Shown: piece by piece, positions 1,678 to 31,087 of the stretch
How positions within the stretch are numbered: position 1 is the first letter of the stretch
How the letters are laid out: each line of letters starts with the position of its first letter
Source of the DNA: Acanthaster planci
Taxonomy: Eukaryota
Direction: 5' to 3'
Length of the DNA: 32,145 nt
NCBI RefSeq assembly: GCF_001949145.1
Contig: NW_019091419.1
Coordinates: forward strand, 490,527 to 522,671
The notes under the pieces: generated by a model
Seen by the model: the letters and a program-made list of their open reading frames with translations, nothing else
Database searches by the model: none
Told to the model about the DNA's origin: nothing
Program-made: the position numbers and the translations under genes

Positions 1678-2605
1678 CTAAAAAACAAAGACAAAGGATT
1701 CACCACTAAACAACGTTACATTTTTAGTAATCTTTTCAGTAAAAAATCCCACAACTTCAGTTGTAAATAATCTTAGTAATGTTTGCTGGTGTTTCTTGAT
1801 AGACTGACCTGCTCAAAGTGTGCAACATTTTGGCAATGTCATGAAACGATACCTTTTCTGTATGGTACACATGTACTTGGCCAGTTGCCAACAAGCCACT
1901 TCATGGAAGGTCAATTCATGGAACTGATCTATAAACCTTCCAGTTTTATTACAGGAAAGGGTGACAGACAAGATGTAGATAGGCAACAAAAATTGAAAGA
2001 CTAGCAAAAGTCTGCTATAAATAAAAGTACCCAAAGTGACCACTGATCAGGGCCTGATTGGCCATGAGGCTCTGCTCACCATTAGCAAAAATATCACCAC
2101 GAACTACACCATAAAATTCTGCACTTAGGGTTAGCATATTTCTCAGATTAGCAGGAAAATTTGGGTTATATCATTTATATGCATGTGCAAATCCTGTAAC
2201 CAAGGATTCTATGCTTATTTGGTTGTCGAAGAATTTTAGTAATAGCACGCTTTTAGCATAAAATGCTGAAAATGAGCATGGAATTTGTGGTTAGCAGAGC
2301 CATGAAACTAGGCTACGTTAACTGGCTGGTAGAGACAGTTCCATCTACTGTTGCAGTTGCCTTTTAGCCTGGAACTTTGGACAGCCTACTTCTATTTCAT
2401 GAAATTGTCCTTGTTCTTTATAGTTTTAAGTCATCAGGACTTCCATACTGAGTTCTACACCAAAACAAACTCATGACCACAAGAAATTAAACAAAATACC
2501 TAACACGGTAAAAGAAACAAGAATAAAAGGCCTTGCATTCAGGACACAAAAAGTGACCCAATACTACGTGTTCCTTACAGTTCTGTAGGCTCTGCTGACA
2601 GGTAC

Positions 2606-2861
2606 ACTACTGCCTTGATTTTCAGGTCTTTCCTGACGGACGTCCGGCAGGCCTGCTGACAGTTCCCCAGGTACAGCCTGCCGGGCAGCACCTCCACAGG
2701 GTAGGGCTGGAGCTGGTCCAGCTCCCTGGGCATATAGATGATCTTCTGCGTTCGCAGGAACGGGTAGAGGGCCGAGAACTCCTCGTAGCCACCCCGGAGG
2801 ACCTTGACAGGATTGCGGCTGCCCATCTCTGACATGACTTGGGCGCATGCAATTGCAGGTT
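2606..2861 (-). CDS. STYXL1: STYXL1-like exon 4: rhodanese C-terminus (VKVLRGGYEEFSALYPFL) plus DSP-domain start (YPVEVLPGRLYLGNCQQA...DLKIKAVV)
   Basis: ORF track 2575..2835(-). Acceptor ttccattcag|aa, phase 1. GGYEEFS and LPGRLYLGN are hallmark MKP/DSP motifs. Donor AGT|gtacct is weaker and was chosen by phase (2) to match the next exon. Confidence 0.7.
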
Positions 2862-6876: not shown

Positions 6877-7129
6877 AATGAGCAAAAAATAGCAGTTCTG
6901 GGTGCAGCTGGTGGGATTGGCCAGCCATTGTCCCTCCTGCTGAAGATGAACCCAATGGTGAGCAACCTTGCACTTTACGATGTCGTCAACACACCTGGTG
7001 TGGCTGCCGACCTCAGCCATATTGAAACTCCAGCCAAGGTTACTGGTTACCAGGGAATGGAACAACTACAGCAGTGCCTGGAGGGAAGCCAGTTGGTGCT
7101 CATCCCTGCTGGCATGCCCAGGAAGCCTG
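6877..7129 (+). CDS. MDH2: MDH2 exon 2: [84 protein letters not shown](G)
   Basis: Acceptor ctctag|aat. NAD-binding motif GAAGGIGQ. Near-identical to the vertebrate mMDH N-terminus. Donor TG|gtaagc, phase 1. Confidence 0.9.
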
Positions 7130-7575
7130 GTAAGCTGTTTGGTAAAGTTACTGCGTATTACTAAAGTTTAGAATGCTGTCGAGAAAGTTTAGAATGGGCA
7201 CAAGAATCCACTTCAGAGATCAAGACGTAGTCTCTTTCCTTTGCAGCATGCTCAAAGTGTAGAAAGTTGTGAGCCCGTGAATCTGCTCTGACTAGAAGGG
7301 CCCCTTGCCAGCAAAGAGGAGACAAGCTAGTGGGACGTTTTTCAAGCAGGATCAAGCACATGCCTGTCATGCATTCAAAGACTATTTATTGCAAATGCAT
7401 GATCAGCATGACTTGTGCCAAGTGCCATTTCTAGTTTCTGTGCCAAGTGGATAAAGTCACGGTCATAGAATTAACATGAGAAAAACTATTACTCTCATTC
7501 TGACATTTTCTGTTGTTTGTATTATGATATTTTCACATGAAGATTTGCCTATTTCGTTGCCCTCTGCTTCTGTAG

Positions 7576-7685
7576 GAATGACCAGAGACGACCTGTTCAA
7601 CACAAATGCCTCAATCGTTGCTACTCTGACTGAAGCAGCAGCCAAGTATTGCCCAAAGGCTATCATGGGGATCATCACCAACCCG
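7576..7685 (+). CDS. MDH2: MDH2 exon 3: (G)[36 protein letters not shown]
   Basis: Acceptor tgtag|ga. Matches m[16 protein letters not shown]...ANPV. Donor CCG|gtaagg. Confidence 0.9.
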
Positions 7686-8163
7686 GTAAGGCAAACAATT
7701 AACAACAATTTTTTGAAATAAGTTGAGTACCATTTGAGGGAAGCATACAATGTTTATAAAGCGGGAAAAAATTGAGCAAAGTTTTGTGTCTGTAATGAAA
7801 CCAAGGATTTTTTTCAAACGCACAAACCTGACGAAAACCTGCAGTCACGAAAATGAGAAGAAATACGGTATAGAGGTGAGAGGAAAATCCCAGAAAAAAA
7901 ATTTCCTGGTAAAATGTAGTTTGGTACTGATTTAAAATCTTTACTCCAACCTGATGCCCCACTCACTCATTTTGTGAACCTTTAACTTCGACTGAAATTT
8001 AAGCTTTAGCACAGAAAATGTATGTTAGTACTCTAAACTGTCACCATCTATTACATCAACAAGGTTAGCTGGACAGCACCAAGCAGTCATTTTCCAGCAG
8101 TGGACCTTAAGCAAAGTGCGTTTCTTTCCATCTTGTGTATGCATAAATTGTGTGACAACTCAG

Positions 8164-8367
8164 GTCAATTCGACAGTTCCCATCTGCTCTGAGATCTACA
8201 AGAAAGCCGGAGTATATGATCCGGCCCGCATATTTGGCGTCACCACCCTGGACATCGTCCGATCCAACACATTCGTCTCTGAGCTGAAGGGCCTGGACGT
8301 CACTGCCACCTCGGTGCCGGTCATTGGAGGGCACTCGGGGATCACTATCATCCCACTGCTGTCTCAG
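8164..8367 (+). CDS. MDH2: MDH2 exon 4: [68 protein letters not shown]
   Basis: ORF track 8116..8433(+). Acceptor caactcag|gtc. Catalytic His in the IGGHSG motif. Donor CAG|gtaact. Confidence 0.9.
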
Positions 8368-8957
8368 GTAACTGGAAGCCATCCATTCTATGCAGGAGCA
8401 ACCCCTTTGCCAGTTACAGTGTTTTGGACATGAAGGACTCACAGAGCACTCTTACCTTATCTGTTTGAAGGTTCACGTGTGCGTCAGATGCTCAGATGAA
8501 ACCATTCCCACCATGTCTCCTCTTTGCTTGTGAAGGGGTGATTCAAGCTGGATGGGATAGTGCTTTTCAAGTTGGAAATTGTTTCCATCAGCATTGAAGT
8601 GAATTGCGGAAGTAATTTCAAATTTGTCAGGCATGGATCATTTTGCAGGCAGTTAAAATGCGTATGAGCTTTGCCCACAGATAGTCGTGCTTTTAGGTAC
8701 CCATCTAAACCTACCAAAATGTAACATATGCAGGATGAGTAAACTTTTCACAATTATTACATGGACAGAAAGAAATAATGTTCAAATTTGGTTCCAGAAC
8801 AGAGGACGTGAAGTTGGTTGGGAGCATGGTGTTCCCTTTGGTGGGTTTAGGGGAAATGTCCATTGTATCGGGGTAAAGTGGGTGTGAGAAAAACTCCTCA
8901 GGGGGTATTGTGATCTTGTGGATACGTTGACATCACTTTGTGCAATTTCATATCCAG

Positions 8958-11008: not shown

Positions 11009-12289
11009 CCGTGGCATTTACAACCCTTCCAAATCCTTCCAGAATGTGTGAATTTTGGAATTGCTTTGAGGTTGTGCAAAACAGGTGAAAGATAAATCCA
11101 TTGTGACTGCTCTGTAGACACAAACACAAACACGCTCAGTAGGTATTCTGTATTGATGCATTTTCTTTATGGTCAAATATGCTTCTTCAAACATCATTTT
11201 TATGGAAAAAGGCACATTTTAACCTGAATAGTCAAATCAGTTCTTGAATGGAATGCCAAATTTTATTGCTCAATATTAGCCAAACTGCTGAAAGTGTATC
11301 AATACGGCAGTACATTTCCTTCCCTTGTATAACATACCAAACTTGTTTTTTACGGTGTGATATTACTACAGTTTTAGGATTTGATATTTTAGGAGTGTTC
11401 ATTTGCAAGTATTTATTATCAGACATGAAGCAGCATGTTTTTTGAAGCAGATGATCCAATATTCTATTTTCAAATCTGATAGCACTGTAGAAATGGCCGA
11501 CAGTAATATTGGGAGTGATACAGACAGGAAGTACACAGAAAAAATTACTTTCTGGCAGTGTGTGTGATTTCAATACAGCGTCATTGCATTGATTAAATAC
11601 TTCATGAGTAACCACGATTCTACCAACATAAAGCCTGTTTTTCCTACCTTAAATATTACATATTGCTTTAGAGTTCAGTATGATGTGCTTTCGTTTGTAC
11701 TGATTAGCCATATTGAGATACTGATAATTTATTTGACAATAAAATGACCCAGTTGAAGGCATGTACATCACAAGTTAAAAAAACAAATTATTCGTGATTT
11801 GATATTTTAAATAGAAGCATATTTGAAGCATTTGTTTATCATGTACTGTGCACAGACTATTTCATCAACCACAGTTCTTGCAACGTCCAAATGAACAGGC
11901 TCACAACACACTTGCCCCTGGAAAGTGACTACATACATGTACATGTACATTGTAATTGGCTTCCACAGGCTTCCGTATTATTCCAGTCACAGCCAGAAGC
12001 CTCAGTTTTAGCCACAGAAGCAAAGGTGATTCTATGCTCATGTGCCGGTCATATACACATGTATGCACAAGGTGCATATTTACCAGATTTAAGAATCTGA
12101 CATGCATGTGAGTACCGTACCACTCAGGAATGCAATATAATTGACAGGTTTATAATTGGTCTGTGAAAATGCAACATGATTAGGGAAAATCGTAATCACA
12201 TGTTATACAAACCCTGGCTAATACCCCCCAATTTGTTGAGTTTCATAAGGTTTAAACAGCATCTTTTAATCCCTTTAGTTTTAGTTTGG

Positions 12290-12463
12290 TTAAGGAGATC
12301 CATGTTCCTTTATTTTGCCTTCAATCCACTGCGCATAGTGTGCCACTTTGGTGTATACCCCAGGATTGTTGGCCATGGCGCACCCTCGCCCCCAGCTGGT
12401 GATCCCAACAAGGTGCCAGCGGCCGTCGGACAGCTCACACATCAATGGACCACCTGAATCCCC
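12290..12463 (-). CDS. Mosaic serine protease terminal exon: [57 protein letters not shown]
   Basis: Acceptor ttctttttcag|ggg, phase 0. GDSGGP holds the catalytic Ser, followed by SWG.GCA and GVYT.V. Stop TAA at 12292-12290. Confidence 0.85.
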
Positions 12464-12970
12464 CTGAAAAAGAAACGATCCAAGACACCATAAAAGACAT
12501 TTTCAGTATTTTAAACAGTTTGCTTAGAAACCTCCAGGAAGGTGTCTGAATTTTGAGTTTGTAGCCCTTCTCTCGGTTACATTTATCCATGAGACCTTAA
12601 CCGCAAAAACAAAAGTTTGATTTTTCTGTCAGGCCACTGTGCTTCAGTTCTTAAACAGTTTGATCGTGAATTGTAATGCTTTAAAAGGTACAGTCCTTCA
12701 TTGCAACCATCAAAAAGTGACTGACAAAATCACTGTTGAAAAGCATACTCATGAGACTAAACTCCATTGGAAATTATTCTTGCCATTTTGAAGAAGAAAA
12801 ATAGAAAAAGGCCATATTTGATGACAAGCCTAAAGACACAAGTTTGGAAAATTGCCATTAGCAGTTGATTAATTTTGGATTTCTTTTTTTCTTTGTTTCC
12901 CTACCCGGCTTGTTTATAACATTGTATACTCGGTGTTTGCCCCCTAAGACTCATGAAAACAATCCACAAA

Positions 12971-13018
12971 CGTACTCGGGTGGGACTCGAACCCACGACT
13001 TCCTGCATTAGCAGTACA
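12971..13018 (-). ncRNA. tRNA-like fragment (T-arm plus 3' acceptor) in the serine protease last intron
   Basis: The minus strand reads gtactgctaatgcaggaagtcGTGGGTTCGAGTCCCACccgagtac, a canonical GGTTCGAGTCC T-loop with a 5-bp stem and acceptor-like ends. The D-arm is missing, so it is probably a SINE or tRNA-derived fragment, not a functional tRNA. Confidence 0.35.
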
Positions 13019-13371
13019 TTGTTATTTTGGCAAAGTGCACAAGTGGTTACATGTATTTAATTTGTTGGTTCAGTGCGCAACATCATGTAGCTACAGTTGG
13101 CTGAGTGAGAGCCTTTTTAGGATGCTAAATTCGAGCATCATTGAAAACATGACTCGGTAACTTTGGATTTGAAATCAATGTCCTAGAATGTCATTTTTTC
13201 CCAGAATATACAGTCTTCCCTGAAGTAAAACTTCATCGGGGTAGTTGTTAGGTGCTCTTTACATTTTGAGCACTTTTTTGCCTCAAACAAAACAACAATA
13301 CACAAATGACAAATGACGGATTATACCTATAAAGCCACACCAACGGTGGCAGTCTCAAAATGACTGCTTAC

Positions 13372-13520
13372 TTGACAAGCATCAATTCCGCCAGCCAAAT
13401 AGCCTGCGCATATCATGCTGCTAGCTATTATCCCGTTGTAGACATCCTTGTGGTTACACTGGCTCTGGCGTAGTATTGGCACCCAGGCCTGCTGAAGCTT
13501 CCTGGCTTGCCGCCCTCCCA
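13372..13520 (-). CDS. Serine protease exon: (M)GGRQARKLQQAWVPILRQSQCNHKDVYNGIIASSMICAGYLAGGIDACQ
   Basis: ORF track 13327..13536(-). Acceptor tcatgtacag|tg, phase 1. Donor CAA|gtaagc at the conserved intron before GDSGGP. Asp sits at the S1 position (DACQGDSGGP), which implies trypsin-like Arg/Lys specificity. Confidence 0.8.
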
Positions 13521-14165
13521 CTGTACATGAAATCATGAAAATGAGAACAGGAAGGCAATTTCTGAACTGTTTTGGTTCAAATTAAAAGCATTTTTCAAAA
13601 ATGGTGCAAATTCCTCATGTTGGCATCTTGAAAATCAAACTTTAAGCATATGTCAAGAAGTACACAGAGGAACTACATATTTCATAATACATGTACTTAG
13701 ATCATGATATACACATATACTACGCAAATAGTGCTATAAAATCCTCCCCGAGCTGAAGTGCACCCCCAATCAGCGAAAAGAAAGACAGGTGGTTACAAGC
13801 GAGATCTTGCACGGGTTTTGCATGTATGCAGACACTCAGAGTGGATTAAAAGTCACAGAAGTTATAGCAACTGTTTGACATACAAGTGTCAGTTTCATGA
13901 GGCTTCCACATTCCGTGCATGTACTTAACATTCACGTTTTTCAAATTTTTGCTCCTCTCTGAAACAGTTGCGGCTGCTGATTTTTTAAAATCATTTTGGA
14001 AGTGCATTTGTATTGCAAATCTACAAGTTGCAGGTATGTCATTCGTTAGCCTGAAATGCTCTGAATTGTTTGAGACTTGGTGTATGTGAAGCTAAGTATC
14101 CCACACAGATTTTCAAATCATGATGTACCATTACAACCCTAGTAATAAATCACATCTATTCTTAC

Positions 14166-14431
14166 TTTCCGTCAATCCCCATCCTGTCACAAGGCAGTGG
14201 ATCTTGTTGGACATGTCCAACTCCTTGTCCAGGCAGGCCACGTTGACCTGCTCGCTGTCCAGCGACAGGGATCTGTCCAGGACCAAGACAGCCAGGTCGT
14301 TGCGCATTGTCTTGGTGTTAAAGCCCTTGTGCTTGATGATGTGTTTGATTTTGGCCTCCTGCTCGCCCTTGGACAGGTGGAGGTCAATAGTGTGCTTGCC
14401 GAGGTGGACCCTCCAAGTTGTTACATCATTC
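14166..14431 (-). CDS. Serine protease exon: NDVTTWRVHLGKHTIDLHLSKGEQEAKIKHIIKHKGFNTKTMRNDLAVLVLDRSLSLDSEQVNVACLDKELDMSNKIHCLVTGWGLTE
   Basis: ORF track 14131..14532(-). Acceptor cactttag|g, phase 2. Catalytic Asp in NDLAVLVL. CLVTGWG motif. Donor GAAA|gtaaga. Confidence 0.8.
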
Positions 14432-14620
14432 CTAAAGTGATACAAGGGAAAAAAGACATGGAATGGATTTGGTTTTTGACCTGTGTTTGTAAAATAATTT
14501 GCATTTTTTCCTCTCTTTTCATTCCTTTTCATCTACGTTTCATTCAGTCAGACTTCCAGTAGATTTGTTCAGTTGGTACTCAACTTCCTTACGACCCTAA
14601 CTTTGTTTTCACCACTCAGT

Positions 14621-14665
14621 CTGGTCTTGTATCTGGTCTTGTGTCTGGTCTTGTGTCTGGTCTCG
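14621..14665. repeat. Tandem repeat, ~3.7 copies of the 12-mer ctggtcttgtgt
   Basis: Read directly: ctggtcttgtat ctggtcttgtgt ctggtcttgtgt ctggtctcg. Confidence 0.8.
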
Positions 14666-15101
14666 ACTACAACACTGCACAATGCTTTCCACCATTTTAA
14701 GGGGGCCGCAGGTCATGCCCAGAGAAACAACATTGGATTTTTCTACTGCTTGAATACTGCATTCTTATGTAGAGCCTGTAAGTAAACGGCTGTGGTTAGT
14801 ATGTCTAATTCCTGTGATTGAATCTGGTCATGTGATCAATATACATGCACAACAGAAAGCTCCAAGTACATTGTTAAGGCCAAATGACAGAAACATTATG
14901 CCTTCTACAGTAGAAAATAGCCACCGTGGGTATTACAGAACAATAGCTAGGACAATGCTGCTGCCGTTATTGGAACCTCTAGACTATAGAGCAATACATG
15001 AAAGGATTGGCCCATTGGCTGGCATACTGATCACTGGGTAACACTGATCATACAAACTATTAAGTAACAGAAGAGTGGGCTTGCATTAAATTATTGATCA
15101 C

Positions 15102-15339
15102 ACCAAGAAAGCAAAGTTAGAGCGGACTTGCATTGATTTCATGAAGCAGTGGGCAGCCGAAACGACAATGTTCTCCCTCACCAGCGTCCCGCCACAGATA
15201 GCCACCTGCCTTCCGCTCTTGAACCTGTGGATGAGCTGGGCTTGCCAGGGCCAGGAACCAGCCACTGCCTCGATGCCACCCACAATGCGCTTTTCGAATA
15301 TCTGGAATGATGGCAATCTCCTTGTTCCACATCCTGTGT
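15102..15339 (-). CDS. Serine protease exon: linker plus activation site DTGCGTRRLPSFQIFEKR|IVGGIEAVAGSWPWQAQL...ICGGTLVRENIVVSAAHCFMKSMQVRSNFAFL
   Basis: ORF track 15098..15316(-). Zymogen activation motif KR-IVGG. Catalytic His in SAAHCF. Donor TTGGT|gtgatc, phase 2. The 5' acceptor is ambiguous between cactgtag|ac (15339) and acacag|ga (15333); both keep phase 1. Confidence 0.7.
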
Positions 15340-15907
15340 CTACAGTGCAGGCCAGACGGGGAAAGGTTGAAATGGCAGCAGAAGATAAAGAAGTGTAATA
15401 AACATAGAATCATGTATCGGTCCCCACACCTAAAAGTGAGAACTTTGGTTTCCAAGATTTTTGGTACGTTTGGGAAAGAAATAGGGGTAGTTTCCGTATT
15501 TACGTTTTCTAACTGGACTGAATCTAAATATGAAGGGGTAGAGTTCAATGAAAATCGACTGTAAAAGCTTTGAATACTGCGCTTTCAATACCTTCAGTCC
15601 AGTAACTCTGTCAGCATTGTATCCTCATTGCTATCCCAAAACTTATGAAAAAAATTGCAAGCTACTTGGGTGAAGCTGGATCCCTCCACCGCCTGCTTAC
15701 TGGTGCAAATTTTAAGGGCAAAACCCAGAATTCCATCAATTTGATTGCAGGTTATGAACAAGAGTTGTCTATCACCAACACATAACAGGTACGTGTAATT
15801 GATTGATTGAGAGGTTTTAAAAATGTTAAATTTGTCCATGCCACCTCCAACCGAAGAATCAAGTGCCAACCAGTCTCACATTTGCTAGGTGAACATGCAA
15901 ATCTCAC

Positions 15908-16093
15908 CCTTTTCTTGGATACACTCTTTCAACTGACAGCCCTCGACCTGAACATCTTTCCCAGTGCATGCAGTGCTCAGCTCGTGGCACTCTCGGTAGC
16001 GCTGTCGCTCGCCTGGTCCACAGTCTGTGTTGCAGGCCGACCACTCACTCCATAAACTCCAGCCGTAGATGGGGCTCCAGATGGACTCCACAT
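15908..16093 (-). CDS. Serine protease exon: thrombospondin type-1 repeat (N)VESIWSPIYGWSLWSEWSACNTDCGPGERQRYRECHELSTACTGKDVQVEGCQLKECIQEK
   Basis: ORF track 15885..16091(-). TSP1 signature WS.WS.W..C...CG.G...R.R.C. Acceptor tgtcacag|at. Donor AAGG|gtgaga. Phase 1-1 exon. Confidence 0.8.
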
Positions 16094-16595
16094 CTGTGAC
16101 AGGAATGTAGTCATGTTATGGCTGAGCAGAGTTTGCAGAGAGATATGTGAAGGTGCCTTGAGGTGAAAGAAACTGTTTGCAAGAAATCCTAGAGACACTG
16201 TTATACATCAGAGGGAAATCCAGCTTTGAGAATATGATTTTTATAATTGTGGGGAATTTGTAACTAAAAGCATAGGAATTTCTCAGGGGGAAAAGTGTCT
16301 CTCAAAAGTTTAATTTTTTCACTTGTGTAACTTTACCTTGAGCACAATGTTTTAATTTAGAGCAGAAAGAGTGTTAGTTCCCAACTTGAGTACAAATACA
16401 TTGAAGGAAAGCCCAAGAATCATTTTAAGTCCATATGAATTACACTTGTACATATGCTTAAGTTTTAGGATTGATGTTTACCGTTTACTTTTCTTATTGT
16501 TTGGTTTTTAAATGTGTATACAAACGAGATGTGTTAGTAGTACAAGTGCAATTCAACCTTCGGGTTGCCAAACTGTACTATTTTTTTTAGTGAAT

Positions 16596-16630
16596 AAACC
16601 AATAATAATAATAGTAATAATAATAATTAA
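16596..16630. repeat. Microsatellite (AAT/TAA)n
   Basis: aataataataatagtaataataataat in the intron between the TSP1 and LDLa exons. Confidence 0.8.
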
Positions 16631-16837
16631 AGTTTGTTCCTTGATTATGATTATCTGAAATTATATTCCTGCATGAAAAATCCCAGAGTGCGGAATAGCA
16701 AAGTGGTATTTCAAGCTTTATTCCGCAAGAGAGACAACAATCCAAGCACCTAGCATAACAGATACTTTTCTGGGGCACAAATGGTTCCTGATAGCATTTA
16801 TTGTCAGATCACTACAGAAATAAGCCAGACTTCTAAC

Positions 16838-16957
16838 CACAGTCTGTTTCGTCTGACCCGTCCCCACAATCATTATCATCGTCGCATCGCCAACCCTGGG
16901 GCACACAGAAGTCCTGGTGCTGGCAGGGAAATGCTCCTTTCCAACAGCGGTCCTCAA
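16838..16957 (-). CDS. Serine protease exon: LDL-receptor class A repeat (I)EDRCWKGAFPCQHQDFCVPQGWRCDDDNDCGDGSDETDC
   Basis: Seen only in the minus-strand frame that the ORF track splits. Classic LDLa: six Cys with W.CDG..DC.DGSDE. Acceptor ttggttgacacag|tt. Donor TGTG|gttaga. Phase 1-1. Confidence 0.7.
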
Positions 16958-17652
16958 CTGTGTCAACCAAGAAATATGACCACATGCAAATGTTAAATGT
17001 TGGAGGAAGGTTAGCCTAATGGGGTAGACAAGCAAAGGTCATTTTCAAATCTTTTGGTTTCTTTTTCTTGTGCTCAAGGGGAAGATTCAGGAGGGGGACA
17101 GTGGGTACCACTGTCTCCCAAGAAAGGAGCCTAATGTCTTTTAAAAATAATGACAGAAAGATGATTTGTTTATTTAATTTCCCCTCCTAAAAGCATATAA
17201 GAAGCCCCCAAATGCGGCCTCATTCCTCAGAATTTATAGATTCTTCTTGAGTGCCTTAATATGCACAAATGTTATGCCTGGTCATAAGCTCTCGTTTTTT
17301 CTCCACAACATGCATATTCCTTCTGTTTTTGCACTGATAGCTTGTTACACTTTGCCAGCCACTGGTTCTAACTGCCACACACTAAAAGAAAAATCTATGG
17401 GCCAGCTAAGGCTATATGTGCATACACTCCATCTGAACGCCTACTGACTGTAATATGTTAAATCTCCCAAGAAAATGAAGTTTACCCTAGTTGAAGGACC
17501 TGTTCCCTGTTCACAACTTGAATTTAAAGAGGCATATCTGGATGACACTTTGGCTTTTGAGAAATAAATTTAGCAACCCAAATTCAAAGCTGCATTAGTC
17601 AGTGCCTAGGTCAGGTGGGTACACTGATCATATAGCGTCATTTTTTTCTGAC

Positions 17653-17763
17653 TTGTTCCGCAGATGTCGGCTGTTTCATCTGACCAGTCATAGCAGTCGG
17701 CCATGCTGTCGCACACCCAGGACCATTTGATGCAGTCCTCGCCAGATAAGCAATGAAAACAAG
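17653..17763 (-). CDS. Serine protease exon: LDLa-like repeat (S)CFHCLSGEDCIKWSWVCDSMADCYDWSDETADICGT
   Basis: ORF track 17606..17878(-). Acceptor tttcatcttggttcgtag|ct. Donor ACAA|gtcaga chosen by phase (1-1). Cys1-Cys2 spacing is atypical (CFHC). Confidence 0.6.
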
Positions 17764-18334
17764 CTACGAACCAAGATGAAAAACATAAATAAAAATTGGA
17801 TAGTTTAGGACTTGGGACTGTACAAGAGGTGCACTTTGGTGGGAGGGGTTTGCTATTGCAAGATGGGGGCACAACCAAAAATGACCTTTGCAGCTTGAAA
17901 TGCTTATTACCTTGCAGAAAACTTTTAAGATAAACTTTCTTAAAACAAGTTTATGTCCTTGATTTAAAGGTCCATAGAATAAATTGTCAATGATTAATTT
18001 TGTTTAGATATCTAGTCTTTGGATGGGATGAAAGTATTTGAATACCTATTTATATTTCAGTCTAAAGAGTATTCTTACTTCAAAGCCCACAGTATTTTCT
18101 GATAACTGGTGTGCTTTAATGTGAATATCATTTCTGCACTCACAAAAAGAACACAAACTTTTTTGACTGGGATTGAATACTTATACATTCCTCAATATGA
18201 ACATGTACACTGTGATTTCATTGCTAAAAACAGGGGAAATCAAACAATTGTGAAATGACAACAGAAAAGTTAAAAGGAAAAGTGAACTGCGAATCGTGTG
18301 CCCTCGGCACCACTTCGAAATTTGTCCTACTTAC

Positions 18335-18469
18335 ACCCCAGTCTGTTGCAATTGGCTTGACGCTCGTCTGCCCCATCCACACAGTCCTCGATGCCATCAC
18401 ATATCTCTGCTCTTTCTATGCACTTTGTGCTGTCGTCACAGATCAATGTGAAGCACTCGTCTGTTTGAG
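18335..18469 (-). CDS. Serine protease exon: LDLa repeat (P)QTDECFTLICDDSTKCIERAEICDGIEDCVDGADERQANCNRLG
   Basis: Acceptor ctttatttttaag|ct. The alternative acacag|ac at 18460 is also phase-compatible. Donor GGGT|gtaagt. Six Cys with CDG.EDC.DGADE. Confidence 0.65.
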
Positions 18470-18700
18470 CTTAAAAATAAAGATTTGGACGTTACTCTTG
18501 TAATAGAGTTTGAAAAGCTAACTCAAGACCCCCAGTAGGGAGCTTGGATTGTTGAAAAGACAACAACTAAAAAGCACGCCAACGTGAACACAAAGATGGA
18601 CCAGTGGTTTCATTATCCCAAACTTGTGACACAAAGTACTCAACGCTAGAAAAACGACCAAAATGTTGAGCAAATTAAAAGGGACAAGGGGGAGACTTAC

Positions 18701-18802
18701 GGCAGTTCTCTTTCTTTTCATCCGATCCGTCCAGGCAGTCAGGTTGACCGTCACAGAGCCACAATTCGGACACCTTGGTTTCTCCGTCTTCGCAGGTGAA
18801 TC
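18701..18802 (-). CDS. Serine protease exon: LDLa repeat (G)[33 protein letters not shown]
   Basis: Acceptor ctttgtag|ga. Donor TGCC|gtaagt. W.CDG..DC.DGSDE signature. Phase 1-1. Confidence 0.8.
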
Positions 18803-19164
18803 CTACAAAGTTTGGCGTCATGAAGCAAATGCTAAACTGTACTCAGAGAGTTCAGTAGTCACTTGATATTTCTTAGCGCTGCCTGACTTTTTAAACTACT
18901 TACGAGGATTTCAGCTTAGATTTTTATTCGATGTTTAATGCTGTTTAGAGTTATGATGCGTTCAGTCGGTTGGCTTTTGCGGGCCTGCACGTGCTGTGCG
19001 ATTTGGTACCGGTGTGTCGGCGTTGTGCCGGTTCGTGGCCCATGAGGTGCGCCAACGTTGTGCCGGCTTTTTTGTCGGTGTTATACCACGCAGGTGTGTG
19101 GACAAAATTACCCGAACAGCCGAAGTTCTCCTTATCCACTAACGTTTCACTGGACAATCCTTAC

Positions 19165-19240
19165 GGACCCCTCGAATGGCGGTAAGCAATGTGTTAGTTT
19201 TTGTGCGCTGTCACAATGCTTACCGCCATTAACGGGGACC
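19165..19240. other. Intronic stem-loop: 14-bp perfect stem, one mismatch, 4 bp, then a 3-nt internal loop and a CCCC/GGGG extension; 18-nt loop
   Basis: Left arm cccctcgAATGGCGGTAAGCAaTGTG. Right arm CACAaTGCTTACCGCCATTaacGGGG. Lies in the protease intron between LDLa exons A and B. Confidence 0.5.
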
Positions 19241-19894
19241 ACTGCCAATAAACATTGACGGAGTTACCATGATCACTGAAACTGTCTATTGATGGTTATT
19301 TGAAATCTCCATGATGTGCAGCTTAACCTTCACCATAACTAATCCCCAAAGCCGTGGCTTTCAGTAATGTCCAGACACTGGGACTCTTAGATTATCCTTT
19401 CAAAGGACAGCTTGGAAATCATTTCGTTTCCTGATGTGCATCATCATGCTAGGATAAAAATGAATTTCGGACTGAGAGACTTGTCAGGAAGTATTTTGGG
19501 TGGTCGTCTTTCCATTATCTCTTGACAAAACGCAATGACTTTCAAACCTACATTACTTTGGTTGGTTTTGTGAACTCTATCTAGTATTTTAAATAAATGT
19601 TTTCATTTACTTCAACTTTCTTTCATCAATGAAGGGGTAAATGAAAATATATCTTTGAAATTGGAATAAAGATTTCAAGTGTCACAGAAAGGTGCAATAG
19701 CCCGAGCTTAAGCTTTACGATGGAAGCCGGACTGTGGGCTGAATTTAACGCCAGAAAGATTTGCGAGGGGAGGTGAGATCGAGGCGAGGGGTGGTGGTAA
19801 TAAAATCCCAGTTGGTGAAAGAATTGTAGCAGTCATTATCAAGTACAATGATCGTACTCATCTTTAGATTGTGTGGACTGTTTGATTTGGCTAC

Positions 19895-20029
19895 CTGTGT
19901 ATTGGCAATCGTCACCCTCATCGCTCCTGTCGTTGCAGTCGTAATACCAGTCGCATTCCAAGTCGGCGTCGATGCACATACCGTCGTCACAAGCGAACTC
20001 ACCTGCCCCGCAACGCTTGTTACCTTTGT
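19895..20029 (-). CDS. Serine protease exon: LDLa repeat (D)KGNKRCGAGEFACDDGMCIDADLECDWYYDCNDRSDEGDDCQYT
   Basis: ORF track 19839..20090(-). Acceptor tttttcgcag|ac. Donor ACAG|gtagcc. Phase 1-1. Confidence 0.8.
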
Positions 20030-20701
20030 CTGCGAAAAATGAGGAAAACGGGTCTTCCTGCTGAAATTCTGAGTGTTGACATGCAGACATTTTTTATGTA
20101 TTACATTCCAGTGTTTGAAGTATACGTTGGCTGGTATAAGCAAGTGGATAAGTAGCTTAGATCGTAATTAACAGGTTGGGAGCGGTGACAAAATTAGCAA
20201 TGGCCATTGTCAAAAAAATAATTTGAACAATCCAGGACAAAGGTACATTTATATCCGAAGTAATACTGATAAAAAGTGGGATGTAAGAATATCTTGGCAC
20301 GAACGGTGTGGGATGACCTTTAAACGACATGCAAGCAAGTTTGTCTCGAGCCAAGGGGGCTCATCAGACCGGCGTTTATCTCCAGCTTCACTGGCATAGA
20401 ACTACTAACTTAAAAGTCCGAATGAGATGGCAGTCCATCACACGTTGTCCCTAAGCTACTTCCAGTGCCTAGGAGTGAAGTGACTTCCGCCCCCAGGTCA
20501 CAACACGTAGCCAGCAGCTGAATTGGAACCCCCTACCCTCTGATAATGAGTCACAAACAACTACATCCCTCTGGGATATGCACCCTTGGCGGTGACTCTC
20601 TCCCTCCAAAGTAGCCTTCACATTGTTGGCCAGGCAGGCCCACACCCTCTCTGCTGCACATAGTTCATCATCGCTTTGAACAAACATTTCACTGTACCTA
20701 C

Positions 20702-20819
20702 CTTTTACGATCGACACAGGACTGGCGTTTGCCAGTATCCCGAGACGTAAAAGTAAGATCGTTGAGACAAGAGCATGGCGCAGAGTAAGTTGAGTGTACT
20801 TTGAACCACAGTCAGCCAT
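20702..20819 (-). CDS. Serine protease exon 1: signal peptide MADCGSKYTQLTLRHALVSTILLLRLGILANASPVSIVK
   Basis: ORF track 20469..20876(-). ATG at 20819 has Kozak gtgATGg; the upstream in-frame ATG at 20876 has a poor context. Hydrophobic h-region with an ANA|SP cleavage-like site. Donor AAAG|gtaggt. The 11 exons total 1734 nt (577 aa) with all phases closing. Confidence 0.7.
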
Positions 20820-21978
20820 CACTTTGTTAGGACAGAGGCAAAGGTTGAGGGGTAGGTTGCTTTGTGAAATGCACATGAAACCATGGCTGACCCATTCTTT
20901 TCAAATCATTCTTGCTGAGTTGCAGCGCATGAATTGTTACACTCGATGAGGAATTCGGGATATGTGCCGGCTCCCATTCATTGATCGATCTGCTCCTCGA
21001 GCTCAGAAGTTCTATGGAAGACGGGTGTAAAATTCCACCTCACCACTCATTCTTAAATCTTTGAGACAGTGTATTTCCCTCTTTTTCTAAAGAATACCTT
21101 TCCTCGTTTAATACAAATGGCCTAGGGACCTCCTTTGATGCTATTAAGTTGCGTGATCATTAGGCGCACAATTTTTTAATCTTGGTAATGTTACAAGTAG
21201 GTTTATCGTGAATGTTTTAATTGATCAAGTAATCGACGTGCGCTATTTCGGTTCGGCAAACAAAAATCATCTGCCCAAACGTCTTGCGATGCAAAAGAAT
21301 GTTCCTGCATCTCCTACGACATTTGTGGAGGATGTATATTTTCTAATTGAATTTCTCTTCCCAGTAGCTCATTGTGTTTGACACACAGTAATTATGTAGG
21401 CCCATGGTGTGGAATGGCAAAACGTGTATTAATGTATCATTATTACCTTGGCTGATTTAAAACGTAAATGGCAGGGAACAACACTGCTCTTTGCACGGTG
21501 CCCGGGCAAATCGTGTCTTAGTATATTTATACTATAATTACATCATTGTGTTGTTATTTGGTATCAAATTGACAAACAGTTCGAGTAGAAACATATCAGA
21601 TATGCCTTAGTTGTTTTCTGTGGAGTGTATGGATTGTATATATACACGTGCCTTTTGCTCTGCATTACTCCAAAAAGTGTGCGCTAACACTGTCGGACCC
21701 TACTCGATTGCATTTCCCTTTCAGGTCACAGTTGGGACTTGGCAGCTCAAAGTTCACTTCTACCAACAAACTGTGAACGTCCTGGCACTGCTATCATGTT
21801 ATCATCTGTTATGAAATATGCAATCAAGACACCACTAGCTATCATCACATGCACAATATACGTCTGCCCATTTAAAACCTAATCGTAAACCCAGTCGCAA
21901 ATCACATAAACTGAACACCCCTTTTGGACTCTGTGACTATATTCAAAAGATCTGATAAACCAAACTTCATTTTGGAAG

Positions 21979-22489
21979 ATGAAACGCCCTGTCGTGAAGG
22001 CTTTGTTTGGAAGTCTTGCTTTGGTACACGTATTATTTTTCCAGTTTGGGATTGCTAACCAGTACGACCCACATGTCTACCCCTCCATTGGACCGTTCAT
22101 CGAGGGCTGGTACGCCCGTTTGACAGACACGTCCACCCCACAATCGTTCGGCGTCCTCTTCGGTCGGGTGTTGCCCAAACCCACTGCCGAGCGGAAAAAG
22201 TCAATCCCGCTGACGTACGTTGCTATTGTTTGCAGCGCCGGAGACCAAGCGCCATTCGTGGTTGCGGAGGCCTTCCCCGATCCAGACCACATCTCTGTGA
22301 CAGTGGACGGTGGGATGCCCGTGACGGAGAACCCAGACAATCGTAGTCCGGCAAATTTCAGATGGGCCGCTGACCCATACGGGTCATTCAACGTGACGGC
22401 CGAATCGACAGTTTTTAACTTCACAATCGGGGACAAAAGCTTGGCTGGGAGCTTTGGGGCTCCAGTGCCATGGGGACCAGTTGGGCAAG
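21979..22489 (+). CDS. Tocopherol cyclase (VTE1/SXD1)-like exon 1: MKRPVVKALFGSLALVHVLFFQFGIANQYDPHVYPSIGPFIEGWYARLTD...GAPVPWGPVGQ + 1 nt
   Basis: ORF track 21979..22500(+). ATG with Kozak gaagATGa. FIEGWYARLT matches the FEGWYF(R/K) motif of tocopherol cyclases. Hydrophobic N-terminal segment. Donor CAAG|gtatac, phase 1. Confidence 0.7.
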
Positions 22490-22815
22490 GTATACGTTGA
22501 TCAAGATGCAGTAATTCTTGACGTGGCATGATGATTTTCTCATGGCATTTACTTGCCAAAGCTAATGTTTTTCTTTCAGTGTTAGGGGCGAGGGGTTATA
22601 GGCTGCAATCGAGTTCTACACAGCAATCAAGACTCAAATCTCTGTTGAGAAAGACCTCGGATGCGTTGGCAGTTGTGTTAATGTGGCACAGAGTTGTAAG
22701 CTGTCGTGCCATTGAAAGGGACATCACGCATGTTATGGAAGGGGTACTAAAAAATTTGATTGTTTAGCAAGCGTTAACATAAGAAGCGCCATTCTCTCTC
22801 TTTTTCCCATTTTAG

Positions 22816-23450
22816 GGCCAGAGGGGTGGTTGAGCAATCTTCCATTTATTCCACTCCACTGGTTCGTTTATAGCCTCTCAACATTCGGGGACTACACCTG
22901 GGAGAGTCGAGGAGACGGCCTGACAATCCATGGCAACGCCAGAATGCATCAAGAGAAGAACTGGGGAGATGGTTTTCCTCCATCTTGGATTTGGATGCAA
23001 GGGGTCGATTCCTCCGGCTCGACAGTCTTCGCGGGAACTTTCGGCGTCCTCAAGTTCTTGGGTTATTTGTCGATAACCGCTCACCTATTCGGTTACCGCG
23101 ACTACGGGGCCGACGTAGAGCTGGACTTTCGCCCTGACAATTCAATCAGCAGAATGACTGCCGATGGATGTAACGGTGTGGCGAGAATCGAAGTGCTTTC
23201 ATTTTGGTACAAGGTGATAGTAGAAGCCAGAGCCCCTCCTGCGACCCTGCAGAAGTGTCTGAGGGGGCCCACAGAATACGGATTTCAAAAGGTCTTGGTG
23301 GAAAGTTTCATGGCAACAGTGGACATTGCTGTTTACAAAAGAGGATACTTCAGCTACCACCTGATGGATATGAAATCGTTTGAGGGAGCGGCCATAGAAT
23401 TCGGCGGTGAAGAACTTTGCGAGCATAATCCATGCACAGCAGAACTGTAA
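22816..23450 (+). CDS. Tocopherol cyclase-like exon 2: (G)PEGWLSNLPFIPLHWFVYS...HGNARMHQEKNWGDGFPPSWIWMQGVD...FWYKVIVEARAPPATLQ...GAAIEFGGEELCEHNPCTAEL*
   Basis: ORF track 22830..23450(+). Acceptor ttttcccattttag|gg. EKNWG.GFP..W.W.Q matches the VTE1 core SEKNWGGGFPRKWFWVQCN. ELEARTNEAGT aligns with IVEARAPPATLQ and AAVEIGGGPW with AAIEFGGEEL. Stop TAA at 23448-23450. The two exons total 1146 nt, 381 aa. Confidence 0.75.
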
Positions 23451-28396: not shown

Positions 28397-29161
28397 GTAA
28401 GTCAGGGGTTGGATGTGGAAAGTGCTTCTTGTAATGTAAACTGAGCGAAATTTTATGTAACTTCTGAGCATGATGTGCTTGTCCATGCTGGTTACCTGTG
28501 GAAGAAAGATGTAGAAACAGAATATGATGCACTGCTGTCACTAATGGGACACACTGCATGCATTCATTGGTGTTTAATTCAGCGACCAGAGTGAGAAGGC
28601 CCTGTTACAGTTACTTCAGTGGTGTGACACTCCTGTGTAAATTCTACACATGTGCGTAATTTCCGTCTTTTACTGATAAGGTGTTGTGACATTCGAAATG
28701 CATGCATGGTGCCCGTGATGGATCTCGCAGAAAATCTTTGCCTGAGCAATTGGTGCATTTTGGGCAATGACAAGGACGTGTCTGTCTAGTGTCTAGTTGT
28801 GTATGCAGATCATGTCACATTTCTTTTTTATTCCCTACGTGGCTTAAGGTAAAAGACAGAGTGTGACTTGAAGTCCTGAATCCCCTAAGCATGTTTTTTG
28901 GGCATCCACTAAATATCAAAAAATTTTTACACTCTTTGGTACATCAATTGGCACATCAAGACTAATGCTAAAGAAATTTCTACCGGGCTATGTACTGTTG
29001 AATTCATTGAAACTTTACAAAACTGGGAGATTTATGGAAAAAGTAGTGTTTGGTTAAAAGAGAAACCCTGCATAACCTTGTTGGGTTCAACATGGTTAGG
29101 GTTAATACATGTATCTGTTCTTGAGCCTCAATATTGCTCGTTCTTTTGATATCTTCTCCAG

Positions 29162-29357
29162 GGTCATCTTCGGTCCCGAGAAGATGATCATGGTCCCCCC
29201 GCGTCACTACTGCATCATTGAGAACCCTGTCCAGCGCAACGAGGATGGCTCAGTGATCGTGGACCAGAGTGGGCAGATCAAGCTTAACCATGCCGACCAG
29301 GAGATCCGTCTGGCCCAAGACCCTTTCCCTCTCTACCCGGGGGAAATCCTGAAGCTG
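29162..29357 (+). CDS. MVP: MVP exon: (R)[65 protein letters not shown]
   Basis: ORF track 29109..29432(+). Acceptor atcttctccag|g. Near-identical to the human MVP repeat-1/2 region (VLFAPMRMVTVPPRHYC...[17 protein letters not shown]). Donor CTG|gtaact. Confidence 0.9.
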
Positions 29358-30134
29358 GTAACTGTCAGAATTTTCTCTCTTGATAGACCAGGACTTTTGA
29401 TCTTCCCATTCGTCTGGCTTCAAAGCATCTGAGCTTTCGAGACATATCATTTGAGAGAAAACAAATAATTGTGTTTATGAACCGCATTCCAACCTGCAAA
29501 TTAATATGCTGGTTCAAATATCATGTATTAAAACGGTAATGCGACTGTGCGGTAGGGTAATGCTAATGTACATGAACTTTGAAGTGCACTTCTGATGTTT
29601 TGAAATGGTAGTCTCATGTTAAAAAGAAGCAACAGCTGCTCTCATACGTGATGGTTGAATTATTGATTATTTGCCAAAAACTGTCTTGTAATTATGCAAA
29701 TGACCACTAGAAAATTTAAAAAAGGGGAATGTGTGGAAAGATTAGTGAACATATGGTATCAAAACATTAAATGTAATTGTATTTTGGCATGGCAATATTG
29801 AGACATATTTTTTATGGCTGATGTTTATCTGTGCATACTAAAACATGGTAATGGGGATAATGATGGCCTCATTCGCTATCTTACACCATTTTATGCACTT
29901 CGTCTCATCAGGCATGCCTTCCATTTGTTTGTCTGTCCATAGGCTGGGGAACAAAAGTTGCCTCTCCCCGGACCTAGATGTTGCTCTTCCTTTAATGTTC
30001 AATATTACATCGATTGTTAATATATCAACATGTTATGTTAATGTAATTGTGTCATATTGTATCATCCTTGTTGAATTATGGCAGCATTGAAATAAGTGTA
30101 TATATAATGCAGTCCTTTTGTTTTTTTGCTTTAG

Positions 30135-30488
30135 CCTGTAACTGCCCTCAAAGTCGTCCCTGCCAACTCTGCTCTCCGTCTGCGCGCAGTCCTGGACTTT
30201 GACGACGAGGAGGCCAAGACCAAGCGGGTGGCCGGGGACGAGTGGCTCTTTGAGGGGCCCGGCACCTACATCCCCCGCAAGGAGGTGGTAGTGGATGAGA
30301 CAATCCGTGCCACAGTCATCAAGGCCAACCAGGCCATCAAGCTGCGGGCCCGCAAGGAGACAGAGGACCGACAGGGCTCCGCCCGGGTGACTGGGGAGGA
30401 GTGGCTGGTCAAGAAGATCGGCGCCTACCTGCCGGGGGCCTATGAGGAGGTTGTGGGTGTGGTCAATGCCTACGTTCTGACGGATAAG
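30135..30488 (+). CDS. MVP: MVP exon: [118 protein letters not shown]
   Basis: ORF track 30228..30506(+). Acceptor ttttgctttag|cct. Donor AAG|gtaaaa. Contains the vault-repeat signatures [18 protein letters not shown] and GEEWLV..GAYLP. Confidence 0.9.
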
Positions 30489-31087
30489 GTAAAAGCATGC
30501 TTGTAGATGGAACTCTTGTATCAGTTACTTGAATGATGGCTGAGATAACCTTAGCTCACTTCCTAGGCTGAATTTTTAGTGATAAGTTAGGCACAGCATC
30601 ACAGAGTGGTGAACTCAAAATATTCACGACCTTCCACACACCTTCTGCGAGAAAAAGTTATCTTCAGGCCATGAATAGAGGATAGCTAGCTAGAGGATAG
30701 GTAGCCTTAAATAAGTTTGCCTACAGCAAGATTAACACAGACTTAACACAAAATCTGTCGACCCTTTCCAAGCGTGCATTCGGTTGACAGTTTTCGCGCA
30801 TTGTGATTGGTCAACGCATTGCAAACTCTTGGAGGTGCACTATTGTGAATTGCCCTTATTGCATTTCACATGTTGCGGGAGACTGCTGAGTCTTTCAGAT
30901 TTCAGTAACAAGGGCGCAGTCGAGTTTATCGTGAAAGTTTGGTGGTGCGTTACTGTTTTGTTTCAAGATCCAACAGAAACTGCTCTTGTTGGATCTCGCG
31001 GCGTCCATCAGGCTCACGTTTAACTCCAGGGGTGAATTTGAAACTTATCGTTGAACTGGTACCTGTGCATGGAATTTGTATTTGCAG

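Follow-up and report, generated by a model that had tools for sequence, protein, structure and literature searches.

In mosaic proteins assembled by exon shuffling, each module tends to be encoded by one symmetrical phase 1-1 exon. This is Patthy's rule, which applies to the LDL receptor, the clotting and fibrinolytic proteases and complement C6-C9; the protease part of trypsin and kallikrein genes carries introns in the phases I-II-I-0. Two kinds of described enzyme come closest to the protein considered here. Matriptase and the other serine proteases of the type II transmembrane class (TTSPs), such as hepsin, TMPRSS2/3/6, corin and enteropeptidase, place an LDLa array N-terminal to an S1A catalytic domain, with an Arg|(I/V)VGG activation bond, a tether of the Cys1-Cys122 type and Asp189. 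Complement factor I is a regulatory protease that is secreted and consists of two disulfide-linked chains, a heavy one with LDLa modules and a light one that is trypsin-like. The present work concerns a protease gene of the crown-of-thorns starfish Acanthaster planci, located in a stretch of 32,145 nucleotides (RefSeq assembly GCF_001949145.1, contig NW_019091419.1, positions 490,527 to 522,671 of the forward strand). This whole stretch is called the window below, and all positions follow its numbering.

The minus strand between 12290 and 20819 carries an 11-exon gene, whose exon model was rebuilt mechanically, for a signal peptide, five LDLa modules, one TSP1 repeat and a trypsin-like protease. 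Its supported exons sum to 1704 nucleotides (nt), that is, 567 codons and a TAA stop, in a frame open from the ATG at 20819. On the predicted product, Pfam calls all three of the families for which the initial annotation had proposed a check: Trypsin (PF00089), the profile of the S1A chymotrypsin-fold peptidases, over residues 321-557 (E = 2.7e-60; 204.4 bits, the cut-off being 20.6; profile positions 1-220 of 220), Ldl_recept_a (PF00057) with five stretches (E = 1.9e-35) and TSP_1 (PF00090) over residues 253-298 (E = 1.8e-9, 38.1 bits against a cut-off of 21.6). Apart from Trypsin, Ldl_recept_a and TSP1-type profiles, no Pfam family matches the 567-residue product at E <= 0.1. The catalytic triad, the specificity-pocket residues, the Cys partners and R320 of the activation site are invariant in seven aligned orthologs. 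The locus is thus very probably, as judged from its sequence, a functional protein-coding gene for a secreted mosaic S1A serine protease zymogen.

The pattern first read from the letters goes far beyond chance. The gene product is also an ordinary, conserved and already annotated mosaic serine protease. An exact-sequence look-up showed that XP_022093247.1 ('suppressor of tumorigenicity 14 protein homolog isoform X1', 586 residues) equals our 567-residue model preceded by MCISQSNLPLNLCLCPNKV, 19 residues that start from the ATG at 20876. From Met20 on, the two agree residue for residue, including a GC-AG junction discussed below. The best database match, 100% identical, is isoform X2 of the same species (XP_022093248.1, 543 residues). 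Both isoforms are automated Gnomon predictions, and the gene model, with the same joins, is therefore already public in RefSeq. The product name 'ST14 homolog' is a best-hit label, not the result of an orthology test.

Gene structure and the donor of exon 8

The exons, all on the minus strand, are as follows, with the corresponding exons of Asterias rubens given where they were compared one by one.

Exon 1, 20702..20819, minus strand: 118 nt, phase 0 to 1; ATG at 20819 and signal peptide, predicted to be cleaved at A30-N-A32|S33 (20724/20723).
Exon 2, 19895..20029, minus strand: 135 nt, phase 1-1; LDLa-1; Asterias exon 132 nt, same phase.
Exon 3, 18701..18802, minus strand: 102 nt, phase 1-1; LDLa-2; Asterias exon 102 nt.
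Exon 4, 18335..18469, minus strand: 135 nt, phase 1-1; LDLa-3; Asterias exon 135 nt; RefSeq reads NCPQTDECF.
Exon 5, 17653..17763, minus strand: 111 nt, phase 1-1; LDLa-4; donor ACAA|gtcaga; Asterias exon 114 nt, same phase.
Exon 6, 16838..16957, minus strand: 120 nt, phase 1-1; LDLa-5; Asterias exon 120 nt.
Exon 7, 15908..16093, minus strand: 186 nt, phase 1-1; TSP1 repeat; Asterias exon 186 nt.
Exon 8, 15132..15339, minus strand: 208 nt, phase 1 to 2; linker Cys306 (GCG), activation bond R320|I321 (15287/15286), start of the protease and His57 (H366, 15151-15149); donor AAT|gcaagt.
Exon 9, 14166..14431, minus strand: 266 nt, phase 2 to 1; Asp102 (D417, 14298-14296) and Cys122 (C438); Asterias exon 266 nt.
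Exon 10, 13372..13520, minus strand: 149 nt, phase 1 to 0; Asp189 (D507, 13383-13381) and Ala190; ends ...DACQ|gtaagc; Asterias exon 149 nt.
Exon 11, 12290..12463, minus strand: 174 nt with the TAA stop (12292-12290) counted; Asp194, Ser195 (S513, 12457-12455), Gly216 and Gly226.

Beyond exon 11, at 12270, there is an ATTAAA signal. Exons 2-7 each enter and leave in phase 1 and hold one non-catalytic module apiece, as the initial annotation had noted; the same arrangement is found in Asterias. Introns of the protease part follow in phases 1, 2, 1 and 0, the last of them directly before GDSGGP. The ortholog of A. rubens (LR699096.1) likewise has 11 exons, of 112, 132, 102, 135, 114, 120, 186, 205, 266, 149 and 183 nt, in phases identical to those of A. 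planci. With its six consecutive phase 1-1 module exons, the gene offers a clean worked example of exon shuffling.

Nine of the ten introns run from GT to AG, and the exception, the intron after exon 8, is of the GC-AG type. Exon 8 ends at 15132 with the donor AAT|gcaagt, and both RefSeq isoforms use this junction, reading CFMKSMNDVTTW. The 1734 nt and 577 residues given in the initial annotation can be obtained only if the exon is extended 30 nt downstream to 15102, where the donor would be GGT|gtgatc, whereas the supported totals are 1704 nt and 567 residues. That longer form, whether as the real product or as a co-expressed alternative isoform, has consistent phases, an open frame and a canonical GT dinucleotide on its side; ending the exon at 15102 keeps the frame but inserts QVRSNFAFLV after CFMKSM. 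Yet its donor agrees with the consensus at only 4 of 9 positions, whereas the GC site agrees at 7, and the inserted peptide has a counterpart in none of the seven aligned orthologs. Moreover, Asterias has a canonical donor, TAT|gtaagt, at the position homologous to the GC donor. Since consensus match, ortholog alignment, the RefSeq isoforms and the Asterias donor all favour the GC-AG junction, we consider the 577-residue form very improbable. A further GT donor at 15127, which would end exon 8 at 15128, breaks the frame. The locus therefore provides a case in which a genuine GC-AG intron led a model built by eye to a frame-preserving but wrong GT donor. This being the single wrong donor, the annotation was right at 19 of its 20 splice sites.

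The remaining boundaries hold up well. Rebuilding returned the same exon starts at 20819, 20029, 18802, 18469, 17763, 16957, 16093 and 15339, and the three junctions singled out for checking, namely the 18469 acceptor, the 15339 acceptor and the ACAA|gtcaga donor (17653), agree with RefSeq and with Asterias. The competing acceptors at 18460 and 15333 would remove three and two residues, respectively, in frame; the acceptors at 18469 and 15339 are the ones supported by RefSeq and by exon lengths in Asterias, although minor, NAGNAG-like use of the alternatives may occur. Further small exons had been suspected in 15340-15900 and 16960-17650. None emerged there: tblastn of nine orthologs against the window gave matches collinear with the 11 exons only, leaving the introns empty, and no second paralogous copy was found by this search inside the window.

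Modules, active site and N-terminus

Chymotrypsin numbering was transferred by alignment to a bovine chymotrypsinogen A sequence in which the indices of H57, D102, S195 and the C1/C122 pair were checked. On this map the catalytic machinery is intact, in keeping with what had been read from the letters: H366 corresponds to His57 (in SAAHC), D417 to Asp102 (NDLAV), S513 to Ser195 (in GDSGGP, the oxyanion-hole motif) and D512 to Asp194. The S1 pocket is formed by D507 (Asp189), A508 (position 190), G535 (Gly216) and G545 (Gly226), with P544 at position 225, and the activation bond R320|I321 (FEKR|IVGG) aligns with Arg15|Ile16. Disulfide pairs 42-58, 136-201, 168-182 and 191-220 could be mapped within the catalytic domain, and C306 of the linker (Cys1) and C438 (Cys122) are placed to pair, tethering the stem to the protease. 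The 44 Cys residues that follow the signal region are even in number and are all accounted for by the modules and this interchain pair. The enzyme is accordingly predicted to be a zymogen activated at Arg320, with a disulfide-tethered stem, cleaving after Arg or Lys; the Asp189/Gly216/Gly226 pocket and the R320|IVGG site bear out the earlier proposal of an Arg/Lys-specific, zymogen-activated protease. From Ala190 we presume a preference for Arg.

The stem consists of the following modules, given by residue number.

LDLa-1, C46-C81, exon 2: six Cys, with a DCNDRSDE calcium-cage motif.
LDLa-2, C88-C118, exon 3: four-Cys variant without the C1 and C3 positions; DCLDGSDE kept; best Ldl_recept_a stretch 80-118.
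LDLa-3, C124-C159, exon 4: six Cys, DCVDGADE.
LDLa-4, C165-C198, exon 5: six Cys.
LDLa-5, C205-C240, exon 6: six Cys; the most conserved module of the stem, DRCWxGAFxCxHxxFC...NDCGDxSDE.
TSP1, W252-C298, exon 7: WSLWSEWS, six Cys.

The acidic calcium-cage cluster is kept in all five LDLa modules, and modules 2, 4 and 5 have a Trp two residues ahead of Cys4. In the canonical LDLa fold the disulfides connect C1-C3, C2-C5 and C4-C6, so that the two positions absent from LDLa-2 are partners of each other; the four-Cys form is conserved in all aligned orthologs. LDLa-5 had been described as split by a stop codon in the open reading frame (ORF) track. This is incorrect: its exon lies inside an uninterrupted ORF of 50 residues (16833-16985, minus strand), which is short and is overlapped by a 105-residue ORF in another frame.

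Several points weigh against reading the locus as the gene of a functional, secreted zymogen. The evidence for the GC donor, the start of transcription and the start codon is comparative or comes from RefSeq. RefSeq lists isoform X2, in which intron 10 is retained and Ser195 is missing. At 1.69, the best 19-residue Kyte-Doolittle window of the N-terminus is a borderline case for a membrane helix, and a start at ATG 20876 would place the hydrophobic core from residue 35 onwards.

As to isoform X2, it reads through the exon-10 donor into ...IDACQ VSSHFETATVGVAL* (13371-13327, minus strand) and so loses the exon that carries Ser195. One could propose that the locus mainly makes this catalytically dead, truncated protein, ending ...IDACQVSSHFETATVGVAL*, and that this product serves, without proteolytic activity, as a binding protein or decoy made of LDLa and TSP1 modules; the existence of XP_022093248.1 speaks for it. 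Exon 11 is intact, however, its protein being 79-86% identical to the orthologs of Asterias and Patiria, with no variation in GDSGGP, Gly216 or Gly226, and exon 10 ends in a strong donor, CAA|gtaagc. Automated annotation commonly turns unspliced RNA into retained-intron models. Isoform X2 is probably such an artefact rather than a functional decoy, and we consider a locus devoted mainly to the truncated protein very improbable.

At the N-terminus, RefSeq starts at ATG 20876, 57 nt upstream of ATG 20819 and the first in-frame ATG after a stop at 20903. With this start, the protein could be a TTSP-like, type II membrane-anchored protease with a cytoplasmic tail of 34 residues, its hydrophobic segment serving as an uncleaved signal anchor. 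Such an arrangement is implied by the RefSeq names 'ST14 homolog' and 'TMPRSS3-like'; LDLa arrays ahead of an S1A domain are typical of TTSPs, the best Kyte-Doolittle window across the orthologs (1.69-1.94) slightly exceeds the usual line of 1.6, and a real anchor is present in P0064, a paralog from Saccoglossus. On the other hand, ATG 20876 stands in a poor context (T at -3, T at +4), as opposed to G at both positions for ATG 20819, and the N-termini of the orthologs align with the latter (Patiria MVMAVHDS..., Asterias MAVLLKMS..., amphioxus MANCLDSVV...). The hydrophobic core, ALVSTILLLRLGILANA, is broken by Arg25 and followed by an A-N-A|S cleavage site. Uncharged hydrophobic runs reach 9 residues here and 13-16 in the orthologs, compared with 27 in the signal anchor of hepsin, and Pfam finds no SEA, CUB or SRCR domain. 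Short classical N-terminal signal peptides, with short n-regions, are also evident in the amphioxus (MANCLDSVVFLVLLSALMPAILS|S), holothurian and Glandiceps orthologs. Because of the interrupted core, the A-N-A|S site, the short uncharged runs and these signal peptides, we favour secretion with good, though not full, confidence and regard a membrane anchor as unlikely. The word 'secreted' in the initial annotation is supported to the same degree by these heuristics and the clear signal peptides of the orthologs.

Upstream of the start lies an ORF of 21 codons (20884-20819, minus strand) that begins with an ATG in good context (ccATGG, at 20884) and encodes MVSCAFHKATYPSTFASVLTK. Its TGA stop, at 20821-20819, overlaps ATG 20819 by one base (TGATG). 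If the 5' untranslated region extends that far, this would be an arrangement of the termination-reinitiation type.

Orthologs and surroundings of the gene

The ortholog sequences are automated predictions. They comprise those of Patiria miniata (P0002, 75% identity), Asterias rubens (P0003, 59%) and Apostichopus japonicus (P0007), a transcript from Logan that is sea-urchin-like (P0005), two crinoid sequences (P0004, P0006), one from the hemichordate Glandiceps (P0016) and two from Branchiostoma (P0018 and P0023). Their modules are ordered as four to five LDLa, TSP1 and S1A protease, and most are 567-582 residues long; Pfam recognizes four to five LDLa, TSP1 and Trypsin in Patiria, Asterias, Apostichopus, the Logan transcript and Glandiceps. 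The Logan contig (SRR6173504), intronless and 1879 nt long, encodes in a single ORF a 576-residue ortholog with the same domain order, closest to a Lytechinus sequence, and supports the architecture at the transcript level for a second species. The crinoid P0004 differs in having a duplicated stem.

The two amphioxus proteins are 35% identical over 99% of the query, and their alignment takes in LDLa-5, an insert rich in Thr and Pro, a segment with WxxWxxW/CSxxC and the linker GCG...R|IIGG. They differ from the sea-star protein in that a Thr/Pro-rich linker precedes a divergent TSP1 and only four LDLa modules are called; scanned alone, their WxxWxxW segments score 22.6 and 24.8 bits with TSP_1, against a cut-off of 21.6. 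Vertebrate matches cover the protease domain only (about 43-52% of the query) or, in fish ST14, LDLa and protease. As far as these sequences indicate, the LDLa5-TSP1-protease architecture is present across echinoderm classes, in a hemichordate and in amphioxus, and has no vertebrate counterpart of the same architecture. This deuterostome-wide conservation without a vertebrate counterpart, together with the misleading 'ST14' label, makes the gene mildly interesting.

A Lytechinus pictus sequence (P0021), annotated as 'HEAT repeat-containing protein 6-like', joins a HEATR6-like N-terminus to the TSP1-protease part, without the LDLa stem, and appears to be a chimeric gene model.

Three neighbours were recognized in the window.

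6928-8433, plus strand: MDH/LDH-family exons (Ldh_1_N 5e-16, Ldh_1_C 2e-11).
21979-23450, plus strand: tocopherol-cyclase-like gene (PF14249, 2.9e-8).
About 29109-30506, plus strand: major vault protein exons (Vault_2 3e-25, Vault 3e-24).

Tocopherol-cyclase-like and LDH/MDH-family genes also flank the A. rubens ortholog, and microsynteny is thus conserved between the two sea-star copies.

Several other features of the window were recorded, most of them within introns. Intron 2 contains a long, almost perfect hairpin (19165-19240) with 29-nt arms, 83% complementarity and an 18-nt loop, for which the RNA form is computed at -47.9 kcal/mol (z = -5.5). A degenerate third copy of its arm lies in intron 8 (14678-14696), the arm is absent from the two other loci compared, and Rfam at its gathering threshold gave no match in the window, the hairpin included; it is more likely a foldback or miniature inverted-repeat transposable element-like repeat than a unique RNA gene. 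A fragment of intron 10, GGAAGTCGTGGGTTCGAGTCCCACCCGAG (about 12975-13003, minus strand), resembles the T-arm and acceptor end of a tRNA, which suggests a remnant of a short interspersed nuclear element; ARAGORN found no tRNA gene in the window. Simple repeats comprise a 12-nt minisatellite (GTCTGGTCTTGT) in 3.8 copies and a 21-nt two-copy repeat in intron 8 (14619-14663 and 14506-14545, respectively), and an (ATT)n-like run in intron 6 at about 16600-16630. Outside the gene, an ORF of 86 residues (2575-2835, minus strand; …VKVLRGGYEEFSALYPFL…LPGRLYLGN…) has no Pfam match at E <= 0.01; it looks like a rhodanese- or dual-specificity-phosphatase-like exon.

Proposed function and relation to known proteases

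The features described above suggest a possible mode of action. The protein would be secreted co-translationally, its signal peptide being cut after Ala32, and the inactive single chain would circulate or reside in the extracellular matrix. A trypsin-like activator, or the protease itself, would then cut after Arg320, and the new N-terminus at Ile321 would form a salt bridge to Asp194, ordering the active site. The LDLa/TSP1 stem would remain tethered to the catalytic chain by a disulfide, and its calcium-caged acidic clusters, with the Trp of modules 2, 4 and 5 close by, might dock on lysine-rich ligands, the TSP1 repeat adding binding to matrix or glycosaminoglycan partners. If docking and tethering work in this way, the enzyme would make limited, Arg-preferring (Ala190) cuts in a specific extracellular target rather than carry out bulk digestion.

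One could go further and ask whether this ancient deuterostome gene encodes the missing regulatory protease of complement or opsonisation in invertebrate deuterostomes, either a functional counterpart of factor I or a convertase regulator that is targeted by its TSP1/LDLa modules in the manner of properdin or C6, and that vertebrates would have lost or replaced. We regard this as a long shot. A survey of complement evolution does not list such an LDLa/TSP1 protease (PMC11312191), and nothing specific came of our literature search, which covered this protein and its accessions, echinoderm proteases with the LDLa/TSP1 architecture, and a factor I of echinoderms. The gene has little consequence beyond annotation hygiene and does not challenge current understanding. 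Still, a correct model could be useful for secretome and proteome work, because A. planci is a pest of reefs and the serine proteases of echinoderms are acknowledged to be unsystematized and to need a dedicated systematic study (PMC10381214).

How, then, does the starfish protein relate to the described enzymes? Its catalytic domain scores 182 bits with plasma kallikrein, 180 with hepsin, 178 with prostasin, 172 each with matriptase (ST14) and TMPRSS2 and 170 with plasmin, the whole range being given as 169-182. It is thus about equally distant from these six proteases, and the earlier statement that the protein resembles no single vertebrate protease is borne out. Judged by these scores, the catalytic domain indicates no specific vertebrate ortholog.

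With matriptase and the other TTSPs, the protein shares the LDLa array ahead of the S1A domain, the activation bond, the Cys1-Cys122-type tether and Asp189. Unlike them, it has no SEA, CUB, SRCR or Frizzled domain that Pfam would detect at E <= 0.1 and no convincing signal anchor. Between array and protease it carries a TSP1 repeat, which is found in no TTSP, and it has five LDLa modules, one of them a four-Cys variant. Assignment to matriptase/ST14 fails on the SEA and the two CUB domains and on specific catalytic affinity, the 172 bits lying below kallikrein, hepsin and prostasin. The name 'ST14 homolog' therefore overstates the relationship of what is a distinct mosaic protease, found from amphioxus to sea stars.

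Complement factor I, a secreted protein whose trypsin-like light chain is joined by disulfide to a heavy chain bearing LDLa modules, offers a likeness of another kind. It differs in its FIMAC and SRCR domains, which precede the LDLa modules, in having no more than two of these modules and in lacking TSP1. Pfam detected neither FIMAC nor SRCR in the starfish protein, where TSP1 is present instead. Factor I is also absent from the top 60 PDB matches of the catalytic domain, to which it is no closer than many other proteases. From exon-shuffled mosaics in general, the gene does not differ in principle, with each module on one symmetrical phase 1-1 exon and the protease part in phases 1, 2, 1 and 0. 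It appears from these comparisons that the gene works like the stem-tethered regulatory proteases, while belonging to neither the matriptase nor the factor I family.

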